Shown piece after piece: positions 7,819 to 58,903 of a stretch of 64,000 nucleotides of DNA; positions within the stretch are counted from its first letter, which is position 1; each line of letters starts with the position of its first letter. Made by a program: the position numbers and the translations under genes. Origin of the DNA: Candidatus Methylomirabilia bacterium (GTDB taxonomy: Bacteria > Methylomirabilota > Methylomirabilia > Rokubacteriales > CSP1-6); NCBI GenBank assembly GCA_041497895.1, contig JBGQHJ010000004.1, positions 11,888 through 75,887 of the forward strand. The letters run 5' to 3'. Under the pieces are notes generated by a model that saw only the letters and a program-made list of their open reading frames with translations, was not told the origin of the DNA and did not search any database.

Positions 7819-7834
7819 TGCAACGCGAGTGCCA
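7819..7834 (-). promoter_or_regulatory. sigma54 -24/-12 promoter P1 (hsp20-usp-cbs-acyl-CoA synthetase operon)
   Basis: Minus strand TGGCAC-TCGCG-TTGCA; IHF-like ATTCGGGCAGTTA at 7851-7863. Confidence 0.9.
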
Positions 7835-7885
7835 CGAGAGACCCCCGTCGATTCGGGCAGTTACGGCCGGCGGCGGCGCGACCGC

Positions 7886-7922
7886 CGAGGCGGCCCCGCC
7901 TCGCTGTGGCGACGGCGCCCCA
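7886..7922. promoter_or_regulatory. Tandem 18-bp palindromes (putative bEBP enhancer) U1
   Basis: CGAGG-cggccccg-CCTCG c TGTGG-cgacggcg-CCCCA. Confidence 0.75.
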
Positions 7923-7929
7923 GGACCTC

Positions 7930-7958
7930 TTGAAGCCACCCGGCCCTTGGCCCACAAT
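7930..7958 (+). promoter_or_regulatory. Possible sigma70-type promoter for the sensor kinase
   Basis: TTGAAG-N17-CACAAT, ending 33 bp before the GTG start. Confidence 0.4.
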
Positions 7959-7991
7959 GCAGGCGTTCATGATCCCGCGCGCCGAGGCCAC

Positions 7992-10157
7992 GTGACCAAC
8001 TGGCTCGTCCGCCACCGGGTGGCCTTCGAGTTCGCGGTAGCCGCGGCCATCCTCGGCGCCATCGCGGTCGTGGCGATCGGCGCCCGCCACCTCGTCGAGC
8101 GGTACGAGGCGATCCGGCGCAGCACCGAGATCGTGGCCGAGCTCGACAGCATCCGCTCGGGAGTCACCGAGGCGGAGGCCGGCCAGCGCGGCTTCCTCCT
8201 GACCGGAGACGAGCGCTACCTGGCGCCGTCCCCGATCGCTTCCGCCGACATCATCGAGACCCACCTGAACCGGCTCCGCGGCCTCGCCGTGGATCGCCCG
8301 GACATCGAGCGGCAGATCGCCCCCCTGGAGATCCCGCTGCGGGACAAGCTCGAGGAGCTGCGGGACACCATCCGCGTGCGGCGCGAGAACGGAACCGAGG
8401 CGGCTCTCCGGCTCGGCCTGACCGACCGTGGCCTCCGCGCCACCGAGCGGATCCGGTCGGTCCTCGGCGCGATGCGGGAACAGGAGCAGCAGCGGCTTGC
8501 CGAGGCGACCCGCCGGGCCGAGCAGGCGCGCCACGTGCTCATCATCCTGGCCGTGCTCGCCACCGCCGCCCTGCTGGTCCTGATCATCCTGCTCGCCGAG
8601 AGCCGGCAGCGCGCCGGCGAGCTCCGGCTGACCCGCGCGACCCTGCGGGAGCAGGTCGCCGAGCACGAGCAGACCACCTCGCTGCTCACCTCGCTCGTGC
8701 AGTCCTCCGACGACTCCATCGTCGGCCTCGACCTCGAGGGGCGCATCCTCACGTGGAACCAGGGGGCCGAGCGGCTCTACGGCTATCAGGAGACCGAGGT
8801 GCAGGGCCGGCCGGTCGACGTGCTCCTGGCGGGCGAGCGGCGGGCCGAGATGGTGGCGGCCCTCGATCGGGTCCGGCGGCAGCAGACGACCGAGCGGTTC
8901 GAGACCGAGCACGTCACCCGGGACGGCCGGCGGGTTCACGTCTTCCTCACCGTGTCTCCGATCCGGGACGCGCCCGACAAGCTGATCGGCGTCTCGATCG
9001 TGGGCCGCGACATCGGCTTGCAGAAGGCGGCCGAGGAGGCCCTCCGCCGCAGCGAGGCGACCTCCCGCGCCTTCCTCGAGTCCGCCTCCGAGAGCATCGT
9101 GATCACCAACGCGGCGGGCGCGATCGTGCGGGTCAACGACAAGGCGGAGAGGATGTTCGGCTACGAGCGCGCCGAGCTGATCGGCCAGCCGGTCGAGATC
9201 CTGATCCCACGTCGCGCGCGGGCGGCGCACGTGGTCCACCGGGCCGGCTACATGGCCGCGCCCCACGTCCGCTCCATGGGACGGGGGCTCGACCTGGCCG
9301 GGGTCAAGAAGGACGGCAGCGAGTTCCCGGTGGAGGTCAGCCTGAGCTTCGTGGAGACCGACGACGGCATCCGGGCCATCGCTTTCGTCACCGACATCAG
9401 CGAGCGCCTGGCGTTCCAGCGCGCGGCCCGGCAGGCCGACAAGCTCGCCGCCCTCGGCACCCTCTCCGCGGGCATCGCGCACGAGATCAACAACCCCATC
9501 GGCATCATCACCTCGCGCGTGGAGGTGATGCTGCTCGAGGCCGAGGGCGAGGAGCTGCCCGCCGAGATGCGCAAGGACCTCGAGGTGATCCTGCGCCACG
9601 CCCGGCGGGTGGCCTCGATCACGCAGGGCCTGCTGTCCTTCGCCCGTCAGTCCTCCGGGGTGCGCGCCCCGGTCAACCTGAACCGGGTCGTCGAGGAGAT
9701 CCTGCAGCTCGTCAGGAAGGACATGGACCGGGCGCACGTGCAGGTGACCCTGCGACGGGACGAGCTCCTGCCCGAGATCATGGCCGACGCCAACGCGATC
9801 GGGCAGGTGCTGCTGAACCTGCTCACCAATGCCCGGCGGGCCATGCCGGACGAGGGCGGCGAGATCACCATCGAGACCGGCTACGATCCCGAGGCCCGCT
9901 CGGTCCGGCTGGTGGTCCGCGACACCGGGACCGGCATCGCGCCCGAGATTCTGCTCAAGATCTTCGACCCCTTCTTCACCACCAAGCCCGACGGCACCGG
10001 GCTCGGGCTCGCGGTCAGCCACGGCATCATCCACGATCACCAGGGCAGCGTGGACGTGGAGTCCCAGGTGGGCAAGGGCACCACGTTCACCGTGACCTTG
10101 CCGGTGGACGCCAGCCACGGCACCTTCGGCGCCGGGCCCTCGGCCCCGTCCCGATAG
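7992..10157 (+). CDS. Sensor histidine kinase: CHASE3 + 2 PAS (second FixL/EcDOS-like) + HisKA + HATPase
   Basis: AEAGQRGFLLTGDERYL (CHASE3) between two TM segments; two PAS domains; H-box GIAHEINNPI; FDPFFTTK, GTGLGL. Start placed at the GTG after GAGG. Confidence 0.92.
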   Translation: MTNWLVRHRVAFEFAVAAAILGAIAVVAIGARHLVERYEAIRRSTEIVAELDSIRSGVTEAEAGQRGFLLTGDERYLAPSPIASADIIETHLNRLRGLAVDRPDIERQIAPLEIPLRDKLEELRDTIRVRRENGTEAALRLGLTDRGLRATERIRSVLGAMREQEQQRLAEATRRAEQARHVLIILAVLATAALLVLIILLAESRQRAGELRLTRATLREQVAEHEQTTSLLTSLVQSSDDSIVGLDLEGRILTWNQGAERLYGYQETEVQGRPVDVLLAGERRAEMVAALDRVRRQQTTERFETEHVTRDGRRVHVFLTVSPIRDAPDKLIGVSIVGRDIGLQKAAEEALRRSEATSRAFLESASESIVITNAAGAIVRVNDKAERMFGYERAELIGQPVEILIPRRARAAHVVHRAGYMAAPHVRSMGRGLDLAGVKKDGSEFPVEVSLSFVETDDGIRAIAFVTDISERLAFQRAARQADKLAALGTLSAGIAHEINNPIGIITSRVEVMLLEAEGEELPAEMRKDLEVILRHARRVASITQGLLSFARQSSGVRAPVNLNRVVEEILQLVRKDMDRAHVQVTLRRDELLPEIMADANAIGQVLLNLLTNARRAMPDEGGEITIETGYDPEARSVRLVVRDTGTGIAPEILLKIFDPFFTTKPDGTGLGLAVSHGIIHDHQGSVDVESQVGKGTTFTVTLPVDASHGTFGAGPSAPSR

Positions 10158-57268: not shown

Positions 57269-57306
57269 TGAGGCACCCGCGCCTCAGATGGGGCCGCGTC
57301 AGCTCA
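57269..57306. promoter_or_regulatory. Tandem palindromic enhancer U12
   Basis: TGAGG-cacccgcg-CCTCA ga TGGGG-ccgcgtca-GCTCA. Confidence 0.82.
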
Positions 57307-58425
57307 CACCCCCAGCTCGGCGCGCACGCGGACGTAGTGCAGGACCTGCTCCCGCGCGATCATGCCGAGGAGCTCGCCGGCTTCCACCACCGGCATCTGC
57401 GCCACGTCGGCGTCGTCCATCTTCTCCAGCGTGGTGAGCAGATCCGCCTTCGGCCCGACCGCGGCCAGCTTCTCCGCCGGTGTCATGACATGGCCCGCGG
57501 TGACGGTGGCCCACTGCTCCTGTGGCACGGCCTTGATCTCGTGCAGCGTGAGCAGGCCGACCATCCGCCCGGCATCGGTCACGACGAAGCAGCGCCGGCC
57601 CGCCCCCAGCACCTCCTCGCGAACGATGCGCTCCAGGCTCGTCCCCCGCTCCACGCGCCGGCAGTCCGACGTCATGACCTGGGCCACCGTCACGTCGCGC
57701 AGCAGCTCGCGTAGGTTGGTCTCCTTGTAGCTGGCCGCGGCGGCGTTCTGGAGGAACCACCCGATGAAGGCGATCCACATCCCCCCGATCACGTTGCCGT
57801 TCAGCGCGGTCAAGATTCCCCACCCGATGAAGCCGAAGGCCACCATCTGGCCGACGGCAGACGCGGCCCGGCTGGCACGCCGGAGGCTTCCAGTGGAGCG
57901 CCAGACGAGCGCTCGGAACAGTCGGCCGCCGTCCAGCGGGAAGCCCGGCACCAGGTTGAAAGCCGCCACCATGAAGTTGATGCGGGCCAGCCAGATCGCG
58001 GGCGCCGCCAGGGCCGGGACGTCACGAACCACCAGCCACGTGCCGCCGAACAGGCCGGCCAGCGCCAGGCTCGTGATGGGCCCGGCGATGGCAACCCGGA
58101 GCTCGACCGCCGGAGCCCCGGGTTCCCGGGCGATCTGGGCGATGCCGCCGAAGACGAAGAGCGTGATGCTCCGGATCGGGATCTGGTTCCGGAGCGCGAT
58201 CCAGCAGTGCCCGAGCTCGTGGACCAGGATGGAGGCGAAGAAGATCAGCGCGGTGATCGCTCCCACCACCCAGTAGGTCCCCGCGGCCCAGCCGGGGTAT
58301 TCGTGCGGGAAGTACCCGGCCGCCAGGGACCAGGCCACGAGTCCGAAGACCAGAAGCCAGCTCAAATGGATCCGGATCGGAATACCCCAGACCTCGAAGA
58401 TCTCGAGCCGACGCGCCAATGCCAC
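57304..58425 (-). CDS. Site-2 protease (M50) with C-terminal CBS pair (Rip3-like)
   Basis: HELGH, IAGP, FNLVPGFPLDGG, two CBS domains. Confidence 0.93.
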   Translation of the reverse strand: MALARRLEIFEVWGIPIRIHLSWLLVFGLVAWSLAAGYFPHEYPGWAAGTYWVVGAITALIFFASILVHELGHCWIALRNQIPIRSITLFVFGGIAQIAREPGAPAVELRVAIAGPITSLALAGLFGGTWLVVRDVPALAAPAIWLARINFMVAAFNLVPGFPLDGGRLFRALVWRSTGSLRRASRAASAVGQMVAFGFIGWGILTALNGNVIGGMWIAFIGWFLQNAAAASYKETNLRELLRDVTVAQVMTSDCRRVERGTSLERIVREEVLGAGRRCFVVTDAGRMVGLLTLHEIKAVPQEQWATVTAGHVMTPAEKLAAVGPKADLLTTLEKMDDADVAQMPVVEAGELLGMIAREQVLHYVRVRAELGV

Positions 58426-58434
58426 CCCGCCTCG

Positions 58435-58854
58435 TCAGTCTTCCTCGAGCACGCCCTGGAGCGCCCTCAGCACGTCCACGTAGCTGATGATCCCGACCAC
58501 CTCCCGCGTCCCCTCGTCGACCACCGGGAGGGCCCCGATCTTGTGGTCGAGCAGGAGCCCGATCACCTCGCTGATCTCGGACTCGGGCTCGACCGAGATC
58601 GGATCCGGGCTCATGACCCGGGAAATCGGAGTCGCCAGCTCCTGCCGGAGCGCGTCGGCACCCCCGACCTTCAGGAGGCGGGCGAGGTCGACCCGGGCGA
58701 GATCGCGATCGCTGAGCATGCCGACAAGGACACCATCCAGGGTGACCGGGACGTGCCGGACGTCGGCCTCTCGCATCAGGTCCCACACTTCTGCGACGCT
58801 CGCCTCGGGTGTCACGGTCAACGGGTTCGCGGTCATCACATCACGAGCGATCAT
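58435..58854 (-). CDS. CBS-pair domain protein
   Basis: SD AAGGAG; ARDVMTANP, VRHVPV, GMLSDRD, IGALPVV. Confidence 0.9.
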   Translation of the reverse strand: MIARDVMTANPLTVTPEASVAEVWDLMREADVRHVPVTLDGVLVGMLSDRDLARVDLARLLKVGGADALRQELATPISRVMSPDPISVEPESEISEVIGLLLDHKIGALPVVDEGTREVVGIISYVDVLRALQGVLEED

Positions 58855-58887
58855 GAGGATCTCCTTTGGGTGTCCATCTGAGGCGAG

Positions 58888-58903
58888 AGCAAGCGCGATG
58901 CCA
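58888..58903 (-). promoter_or_regulatory. sigma54 promoter P17 (CBS-site-2 protease)
   Basis: Minus strand TGGCAT-CGCGC-TTGCT; IHF-like ATTTCGGCACTTA at 58920-58932. Confidence 0.87.

Follow-up and report, generated by a model that had tools for sequence, protein, structure and literature searches.

RESULTS

A gene island behind 17 predicted sigma-54 promoters

The window analyzed here, a stretch of 64,000 nucleotides (G000:C4:11888-75887) from the genome of a Candidatus Methylomirabilia bacterium of the order Rokubacteriales, carries an island of stress, repair and energy genes behind 17 predicted sigma-54 (-24/-12) promoters. The assembly, G000, comprises 5.11 Mb in 280 contigs, with a GC content of 71.4% and a completeness of 86.8%. 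Genes were called by a codon usage scorer trained on the genome, and the calls span 93% of it; a Pfam family was found for 63 of the 69 called window proteins. The set includes 5 universal stress proteins (Usp), 9 CBS-pair proteins and 2 Hsp20 proteins, as well as the repair genes for RtcB (with archease) and isoaspartyl methyltransferase. Metabolic genes encode an ADP-forming acyl-CoA synthetase, phosphofructokinase, PEP synthase and malic enzyme, and the window also encodes an L,D-transpeptidase, an IHF-beta-like protein and a DksA-like protein.

The motif GGCANNNNNNWTGC was matched exactly 17 times on the two strands of the window, compared to a mean of 3.93 matches (standard deviation, 2.13; maximum, 10) in 100 dinucleotide-preserving shuffles of the window, none of which reached 17. 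A first-pass annotation made from the sequence had listed the same 17 sites (its starts count the leading N), and its tallies of 11 TTGC and 6 ATGC elements and of the GG-N10-GC spacing were reproduced. All 17 sites fit GGCA-N6-WTGC; a T precedes the GG in 12 of them, and the fifth motif base is C in 10, G in 4 and T in 3. Every site lies outside genes and faces the next same-strand gene, as had been claimed; however, the distance from motif to called start was 5 to 136 bp here rather than 13 to 96 bp, a discrepancy that comes from the choice of start codons. A position matrix whose training set excluded the window (85 oriented sites) gave the 17 sites scores of 12.7 to 22.4 bits. Two other places on either strand of the window scored 9 bits or more (9.8 and 10.4), both within genes.

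The motif occurs 202 times in the genome, 149 times in intergenic DNA (356,412 bases, 7% of the genome) and 53 times in coding DNA. The resulting densities of 0.418 and 0.011 matches per kb differ by approximately 37-fold; an equal density inside coding sequences had been named with the first-pass annotation as a refuting outcome. Of the matches, 102 are intergenic and face a start no more than 200 bp away; the window, which makes up 1.25% of the genome, holds 17 of these, compared to about 1.3 expected. The genome also encodes 15 full-length and 3 truncated sigma-54 activators (PF00158), with strong scores over the cut-off. Because sequence, GG-N10-GC spacing, intergenic position, orientation, genome-wide intergenic enrichment and the presence of 15 activators all agree, the 17 sites are, as judged from sequence, sigma-54 promoters of the -24/-12 class.

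Of the 63 genes located from 1455 to 58903, 59 fell behind the 17 promoters when same-strand genes were followed from each site (three overlapping genes were added to this count by hand), in line with the earlier figure of about 55. The promoter density within the island is approximately one per 3 kb. The genes that have no sigma-54 promoter are those for a histidine kinase, a PLD-like protein, a formate/nitrite transporter and a CarS-like protein.

An inverted repeat is shared by most of the promoters

Expectation maximization, run de novo on 13 control regions (four of them between divergent pairs), returned the inverted repeat TGRGG-N8-CCYCA. A loose palindrome regular expression matched everywhere in the GC-rich DNA and was dropped in favor of this procedure. 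The 18-bp repeat lies 50 to 105 bp upstream of the promoter in one or two copies, with paired copies 19 to 20 bp apart, and CCCCAGCTGGGG palindromes seen by eye proved to be the junctions between two copies. A second copy (at most 2 mismatches) stands at ±19 to 20 bp from 8 of 11 primary sites, compared to a background of 0.23% of window positions.

Exact matches number 34 in the genome for the N8 spacing, versus 7 to 14 for N6, N7, N9 and N10. Sixteen of the N8 matches are intergenic, and 12 of these have an oriented sigma-54 site no more than 200 bp away. Allowing one mismatch, the repeat was found 20 to 170 bp upstream of 23 of the 102 oriented sites, among them 14 of the 17 in the window, whereas a downstream control at the same distance gave 3 of 102. 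The window contains 25 such copies, compared to 10.6 ± 3.5 in shuffles (0 of 100 reached 25).

Patches rich in AT occur at -30..-28 and -20..-18 from the GG, both in the window promoters and in other sigma-54 promoters of the genome, and an AT-rich, IHF-like patch is often found between the repeat and the -24 element. These patches resemble the IHF consensus only moderately.

The repeat and the island are conserved in some relatives and absent from others

A composite pattern (repeat, 40 to 100 bp, then promoter) was searched in 21 genomes, G000 included. It occurred 5 to 16 times in each of 12 genomes, and the reversed-pattern control gave 2 hits in all. At other Methylomirabilota loci the repeat stands 69 to 114 bp before the sigma-54 motif. 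When the hsp20 promoters of eight genomes were aligned, two repeats, GTAAC..TGAAT and TGGCAC-N5-TTGCA proved to be fixed, while the spacers vary; both half-site pairs of the promoter 1 repeats are kept in all eight. In congener G012, orthologues of the window, of contigs C8 and C25 and of the Usp gene on contig C1 form one continuous island of 63 kb (1,120,000-1,183,700 of a 1.23-Mb contig). This island has 20 sigma-54 motifs, 17 of them with the repeat.

Within the genus, five genomes (G000, G001, G007, G009 and G012) are alike in having at least 7 composite sites, a 447-amino-acid (aa) marker protein encoded in the island and an orthologue of the candidate activator described below. Seven others (G003 to G006, G008, G010 and G011) have 0 or 1 composite site, no marker and no activator orthologue. 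In G008 the island is absent, and its flanks are joined at approximately 90% protein identity. The joined flanks (G008:C1:150000-169999) correspond to window positions 1-6469 and 60090-61274; the activator is gone as well. On one side the break falls inside the hsp20 operon, such that acyl-CoA synthetase, usp, F420-family and pirin genes are kept and hsp20, usp and CBS genes are lost. No evidence of a recent transfer of the island emerged: no tRNA was found in the window, no integrase or transposase family was found among its 69 proteins, and its GC profile is even (0.69 to 0.75).

A candidate NtrC-type activator

Directly upstream of one repeat-bearing promoter outside the window lies a gene for a 469-aa protein (P0001; G000:C25:33915-35324) with a receiver (REC) domain, an AAA+ domain with GAFTGA and a Fis-type helix-turn-helix (HTH). 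Pfam assigned Response_reg, Sigma54_activat and AAA_lid_14, and the translation contains GESGTGKE, LFLDEIG, GAFTGA and a C-terminal HTH-like stretch. The best PDB matches are Aquifex NtrC-family activators (E value, 3e-95). The best NCBIfam match was AtoC at 484 bits against a cut-off of 714, and no equivalog cut-off was reached. With these canonical domains and motifs, the protein is predicted to be an NtrC-type enhancer-binding protein.

A repeat and a sigma-54 promoter stand directly behind the stop codon of the activator gene at seven orthologous loci (G000 and six others) and at none of seven paralogue loci. The last gene of the G012 island is the activator orthologue. Adjacency, the G012 arrangement and the presence/absence profile make this protein the best candidate regulator of the repeat-bearing promoters. 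Since activator and island are gained or lost together, their co-occurrence is an association and not proof of binding.

A sensor kinase with a FixL-like PAS domain

The sole kinase of the window is encoded at 7992-10157, divergently from promoter 1, and in G012 its orthologue is found at the corresponding place. The kinase core is nearest to ZraS and AtoS, and the candidate activator is nearest to AtoC; these are families of kinase-activator pairs. The second PAS domain (PAS2; residues ~340 to 485) matched the heme domains of FixL and DosP with phmmer E values of 2e-15 to 1e-10. It has a histidine aligned with that of the FixL 'SRHDSY' stretch, the heme ligand in FixL. The kinase is therefore proposed, from its domains and position, as the sensor of the regulon.

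Before the kinase gene we noticed TTGAAG-N17-CACAAT (7930-7958, +), which agrees with the sigma-70 consensus at 8 of 12 positions and is kept in most of eight aligned relatives (L037 departs). A sigma-70 scan around the kinase start gave no hits at the scan threshold. The element may be a constitutive kinase promoter or part of a longer frame that starts from TTG at 7947.

Putative regulon members and a second sigma-54 cluster outside the window

At least nine repeat-bearing promoters were found outside the window, bringing the total to 23 to 26 promoters and roughly 85 genes. These outlying members are listed in Table 1 together with the promoters, repeats and genes of the window.

TABLE 1 Predicted sigma-54 promoters, proposed activator sites and associated genes (window positions unless a contig is named; mismatches to TGRGG-N8-CCYCA in parentheses)
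Feature	Position	Strand	Upstream repeat	Genes and remarks
Promoter 1	7820..7833	-	7886..7922, tandem (7905-7922, 1; 7886-7903, 2)	9 genes: hsp20 (7339-7770), usp, CBS, ADP-forming acyl-CoA synthetase (4379-6469), usp, usp, CBS, F420H2-quinone-reductase family, pirin (1455-2327); 19.9 bits; orthologous promoter conserved in 7 relatives
Sensor histidine kinase	7992..10157	+		CHASE3, PAS, FixL-like PAS, HisKA, HATPase; no sigma-54 promoter
Promoter 2	14376..14389	-	14442..14479, tandem (0 + 2), 20 bp apart	dksA-like, cytochrome c, phosphofructokinase (12540-14335)
Promoter 3	15871..15884	-	15967..15984 (1)	153-aa unknown, DUF2267, CBS (14529-15813)
Promoter 4	23199..23212	-	23267..23284 (0)	7 genes: YgaP-like, membrane-fusion protein, RND pump, DUF302, YgaP-like, archease, RtcB (15995-23139)
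Promoter 5	27603..27616	-	2-mismatch only	HAD-phosphatase/P-loop fusion, Mg-type P-type ATPase (23325-27587)
Promoter 6	27763..27776	+	2-mismatch only	Divergent from promoter 5; OmpA-like, Glu/Leu dehydrogenase, DUF3300, DUF2950, OPT transporter (27908-33606)
Promoter 7	40147..40160	-	40214..40250, tandem (2 + 0), shared with promoter 8	8 genes: hsp20, isoaspartyl methyltransferase, usp, 73-aa open reading frame (ORF), ABC ATPase, MacB/FtsX permease, PEP synthase, cytochrome c (33603-40092)
Promoter 8	40293..40306	+	Shared with promoter 7	Divergent from promoter 7; CBS, carrier-domain/fatty-acyl-AMP-ligase/acyltransferase fusion, DUF308 (40349-44195)
Promoter 9	44837..44850	-	2-mismatch only	usp (44263-44700)
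Promoter 10	46304..46317	-	46380..46417, tandem (2 + 0)	CBS (45748-46212), 46-aa ORF
Promoter 11	47804..47817	-	47860..47897, tandem (1 + 1), 20 bp apart, shared with promoter 12	Malic enzyme (46422-47798)
Promoter 12	47964..47977	+	Shared with promoter 11	Divergent from promoter 11; 103-aa protein without family (48000-48311)
Promoter 13	49457..49470	-	49549..49586, tandem (1 + 2), shared with promoter 14	Two CBS genes (48335-49380)
Promoter 14	49653..49666	+	Shared with promoter 13	Divergent from promoter 13; 89-aa ORF, 75-aa ORF, MlaC (49735-50887)
Promoter 15	55256..55269	-	55335..55372, tandem (0 + 1)	IHF-beta/HU-like (54926-55234), CBS, 447-aa P-loop protein (53133-54476), YkuD L,D-transpeptidase, M15 peptidase (50925-51425)
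Promoter 16	57167..57180	-	57269..57306, tandem (0 + 1)	GYD, AIR-synthase-related protein (55381-57106)
Promoter 17	58889..58902	-	58966..58983 (1)	CBS, M50 protease with CBS (57304-58839); 22.4 bits
Outside member	C51		Present, with sigma-54 promoter	cbb3 oxidase ccoNO-ccoP
Outside member	C25:33783			Usp-Usp, 366-aa unknown, double P-loop kinase, receiver, CBS, TPR
Outside member	C25:25789			Ribosome hibernation factor, release-factor-like protein, inositol monophosphatase
Outside member	C25:13226			HlyD-ABC exporter
Outside member	C1			Usp gene
Outside member	C1			Unknown gene, then amine oxidase
Outside member	C8			CBS, citrate synthase, PAS kinase
Outside member	C133			PAS-LuxR regulator
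Outside member	C10			Small ORF

A second sigma-54 cluster (G000:C87:1-20000) has 7 oriented motifs in 20 kb without TGRGG-N8-CCYCA. Its motifs head genes for a receiver with PEPCK, MreB, PilZ, an MlaC operon and an ANTAR regulator, and it includes a REC-AAA+-HTH activator whose frame is broken by one TAG. This cluster probably represents another regulon with its own enhancer.

Close relatives in RNA-library contigs

Logan contigs of at least 92% likeness, from four of 6 RNA-library runs (X9, X21, X20 and X23; 3 studies), were compared with 39500-59400. Contigs of close relatives gave depth in 30 of 30 bins in three of the runs and in 27 of 30 in X21. Among the 32 of 1281 pieces that were listed, contig ends at 46295, ~40123 and ~57124, each from a single run, fall within 3 to 30 nucleotides of predicted starts. 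The ends at 44744/44745, seen in two runs from a single study, are inconsistent with promoter 9.

In all four runs, contigs joined 48762 to 48841 and omitted 78 bases of the spacer that separates the two CBS genes, most likely a spacer length variant in related strains.

Other features of the island

The sigma-54 operon at 15995-23139 (-) opens with an RND efflux pump and closes with archease and RtcB; neither RtcR nor RtcA was found nearby. In E. coli, rtcBA has its own sigma-54 promoter and RtcR.

The best-conserved island gene, with 84 to 93% identity in four congeners, encodes the 447-aa P-loop protein (53133-54476, -), which has no Pfam or NCBIfam family. Its gene is flanked by a CBS gene on one side and an L,D-transpeptidase gene on the other. 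A protein atlas groups it with the automatically named 'cyclic 2,3-diphosphoglycerate synthase family' and CobW-like GTPases (feature score, 0.99); as a lead only, its product could be a protective solute.

At the head of the promoter 15 operon, the HU-family gene (54926-55234, -) scored better as IHF-beta (E value, 5e-26) than as HU (1e-15), below both cut-offs. The regulon may therefore include an IHF-like DNA bender of its own.

The 949-aa fusion under promoter 8 (40790-43639, +) combines a carrier domain, a fatty-acyl-AMP ligase and a glycerolipid acyltransferase, which suggests that membrane-lipid remodeling is part of the response. The CarS-like gene (CDP-archaeol synthase family, PF01864) lies within the island at 44995-45513 (+). 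In promoters 12 and 14, ACTTGAGCG was found directly upstream of the -24 element (47948-47963 and 49637-49652), additional to the shared enhancer. Both promoters head small family-less proteins (48000-48311 and 49735-50004).

DISCUSSION

A proposed low-oxygen or low-energy persistence regulon

We propose that the 17 sigma-54 promoters, one NtrC-type activator acting on the shared repeat and the input of a kinase make the 59 genes a low-oxygen or low-energy persistence island, and we give this reading a probability of roughly 0.6. In the proposed circuit, a single response-regulator activator (C25:33915-35324) would bind the TGRGG-N8-CCYCA repeats. Once phosphorylated, it would remodel the sigma-54 holoenzyme at all repeat promoters, such that the island would fire as one unit. 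The likely input would be the island's own histidine kinase, with its PAS2 resembling FixL and DosP, and the signal would be falling oxygen or energy charge. The output would comprise Usp, CBS and Hsp20 proteins, the ribosome hibernation factor, the repair of RNA and proteins (RtcB, isoaspartyl methyltransferase and Lon) and substrate-level ATP formation (ADP-forming acyl-CoA synthetase, phosphofructokinase, PEP synthase and malic enzyme), together with the cbb3 oxidase and cell wall remodeling. The persistence reading follows from the heme-PAS-like PAS2, the cbb3 oxidase target and the gene set, which together suggest a low-oxygen or dormancy regulon. One regulator could probably switch the whole block on under oxygen or energy shortage. 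The first-pass annotation had claimed one co-activated regulon: the repeat shared by 14 of 17 promoters and conserved in relatives speaks for a single regulon, whereas the co-activation itself we infer, and three promoters have no good repeat.

Several observations weigh against this proposal. In this assembly, no activator lies on the window's own contig, C4. Promoters 27603, 27763 and 44837 have repeat copies with 2 mismatches only, so that they may answer to another activator, and the orthologous ATPase/OmpA promoter pair of G012 likewise has no good repeat. Activator and composite sites do not always go together: G002 and G017 have activator orthologues (82% and 63% identity) and no composite sites, and G020 has 6 composite sites and no activator orthologue at 60% or above. 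The co-occurrence of activator and island may reflect linkage rather than function, and the genomes compared are mutually related, not independent samples. The E. coli IHF consensus, with at most 3 mismatches, was matched in 9 of 17 promoters versus 14.8% of random intergenic 40-mers, a modest match. The RNA material consists of assembled contigs, which can neither show starts nor prove transcription. The kinase and the sigma factor raise further points, taken up below with the alternatives.

Alternative explanations

The same activator and sigma-54 could respond to starvation, stationary phase, desiccation, osmotic stress or heat, through CHASE3 or through another kinase. Much of the gene set would suit persistence in general (Hsp20, Usp, CBS, a BON protein, the hibernation factor, Lon, the repair enzymes and the L,D-transpeptidase), and a second PAS kinase and a stand-alone receiver are regulon members themselves. 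The proposed sensor has a periplasmic CHASE3 domain, so that its signal may not be oxygen. In FixL, two arginines contact the heme propionate and O2; their positions align with G and L in PAS2, where arginines lie 1 to 2 residues away. We rate such a trigger as less likely than falling oxygen or energy charge, although a general starvation or drying signal is a serious rival. Against it, the operon for the high-affinity cbb3 oxidase has both the repeat and a sigma-54 promoter, and PAS2, which retains the proximal histidine, matches oxygen sensors of the heme-PAS type. Furthermore, the DosR gene set, one of the closest to have been studied, is induced by low oxygen. The same is reported for the NmpR (PMC11841059) and lxa (PMC3721108) gene sets.

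The island could also be a patchwork in which several activators serve the 17 promoters, the repeat being a GC-rich coincidence or the site of a repressor or nucleoid protein. The genome has 15 full activators and 76 other oriented sigma-54 sites without the repeat, which would fit such a patchwork, as would the three window promoters without a good copy and the frequency of one-mismatch repeats (731 in a genome of 71% GC). A coincidence would explain neither the enrichment at the N8 spacing only nor the excess of upstream over downstream repeats, the pairing at a 19- to 20-bp period and the rarity of the reversed pattern; moreover, the repeats are kept at orthologous promoters while the spacers drift. 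We therefore consider a patchwork improbable. Still further from the evidence is the idea that the motif matches are chance or relics in an organism without sigma-54, which we regard as already disfavored and hardly credible. The first-pass annotation had expected the genome to encode rpoN and would have taken its absence as refutation, and in this assembly no rpoN was found by PF04552, by PF04963 or by tblastn with the congener protein. However, rpoN is present in 12 of 12 same-genus genomes and in 19 of the 21 genomes in total, and the gene next after rpoN in G012 corresponds to G000:C146:10616-11769, 367 bp from the end of a 12,136-bp contig. The expected place of rpoN is thus just past a contig break, and an assembly break is the likely explanation, given also the completeness of 86.8%. 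Chance or decay would leave unexplained the shuffling result, the intergenic and oriented placement of every site and the conservation of orthologous sites in relatives, and the 15 intact activators with GAFTGA-type AAA+ domains would be functionless without sigma-54.

Significance of the locus

Rokubacteria and Methylomirabilota are widespread in soil. We know of no cultured representative of this lineage, and how its members survive swings of oxygen and energy is therefore known only from genomes. The locus offers a concrete candidate circuit of a sensor kinase, an activator, an 18-bp enhancer word, 23 to 26 promoters and ~85 genes. What is new here is the TGRGG-N8-CCYCA repeat at 14 of 17 promoters, its conservation in relatives and its co-occurrence with one NtrC-type enhancer-binding protein. 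In the literature searched, we found no paper on both Rokubacteria and sigma-54, which does not prove that none is in print. A broad survey of sigma-54 (PMC12316311) makes no mention of Methylomirabil*, Rokubacteria or hypoxi*. The enhancer word and promoter set can be used at once for reading metatranscriptomes, and the presence or absence of the island among congeners constitutes a natural experiment on its ecological value.

A broader view is possible, though we offer it tentatively: the island would be a self-contained, dispensable dormancy cassette of 60 to 90 kb with its own heme-PAS kinase, NtrC-type activator, IHF-like subunit and at least 20 sigma-54 promoters under one enhancer, placing it among the largest clustered single-activator sigma-54 regulons and implying an ecotype split. 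If this is true, the program would be completely inactive in air, given that a sigma-54 promoter is silent unless its activator is at work, and would respond in an all-or-none manner when oxygen falls. The presence or absence of the island would then divide an uncultured genus that is abundant in soil into persister and non-persister ecotypes.

Comparison with known systems

The first-pass annotation had called the concentration of sigma-54 promoters unusually dense. This holds within this genome, whereas the nif cluster of Klebsiella has a similar density of approximately one sigma-54 promoter per 3 kb. The nif promoters are served by NifA from an upstream activator site (TGT-N10-ACA), often with an IHF site, and direct nitrogen fixation; the density is equal, but there are ~7 to 8 promoters in nif and 17 to 20 in this island.

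In gene content the island resembles the DosR/DevR regulon of Mycobacterium tuberculosis, which includes Hsp20/alpha-crystallin, many Usp, a CBS protein, phosphofructokinase, a P-type ATPase, a ribosome-silencing factor and a nitroreductase. That regulon is driven by heme sensor kinases with GAF-heme domains, and only some of its genes are clustered. DosR belongs to the NarL/LuxR-type regulators and acts at sigma-70-type promoters, whereas sigma-54 is predicted here. A persistence gene set like those under DosR in mycobacteria and under an Fnr-like factor in Burkholderia appears here to be wired to sigma-54, which would provide tight off-states and ATP dependence.

The proposed sensor is comparable to FixL of the FixL-FixJ system, given that its PAS2 aligns with the FixL heme domains 1d06, 1dp6 and 8js5 (E values, 2e-15 to 9e-13), including the proximal histidine. 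It differs in having CHASE3 and an extra PAS domain, in its unaligned distal arginines and in its partner, which is predicted to be a sigma-54 activator rather than a FixJ/LuxR-type regulator.

The nearest system in layout is the lxa locus of Burkholderia cenocepacia, a block of ~50 co-regulated genes reported to be activated by low oxygen (PMC3721108). Six of these encode universal stress proteins, and others encode a small heat-shock protein, a cation ATPase, and metabolic and transport functions; one motif recurs at 17 intergenic points of the 50-gene cluster and at a few loci elsewhere, and the presence of the locus varies among related genomes (PMC3721108). The count of 17 points, too, qualifies the claim of unusual density. 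The lxa motif given there is TGA-N6-TCA, of the Fnr/Anr type (PMC3721108), and activation would therefore proceed through a CRP-family regulator at ordinary promoters. In contrast, the operons here have -24/-12 promoters and a distant enhancer and would thus require an ATP-driven activator.

The nearest studied circuit is, by analogy, the NmpR regulon of Myxococcus xanthus, a hypoxia-induced sigma-54 regulon of 7 promoters and 23 genes scattered over the chromosome (PMC11841059). The NmpR box, GCGCA-N5-TGCGC, occurs there twice per promoter, 14 to 15 bp apart (PMC11841059); with at most one mismatch it was found 10 times here versus 12.6 expected, and in none of the 13 control regions. The two systems differ further in that a protoglobin kinase and a hybrid kinase act there (PMC11841059), as opposed to the CHASE3-PAS-PAS kinase proposed here, and in that the 23 to 26 promoters and ~85 genes found here lie mostly in one island. 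There are several likenesses as well: an NtrC-like response regulator works with sigma-54; the promoter is preceded by two closely spaced inverted-repeat enhancer sites; a CBS protein, a universal stress protein, a P-type ATPase and a cbb3 oxidase are among the targets, as are the signaling genes of the system itself; and a heme kinase tops the pathway (PMC11841059).

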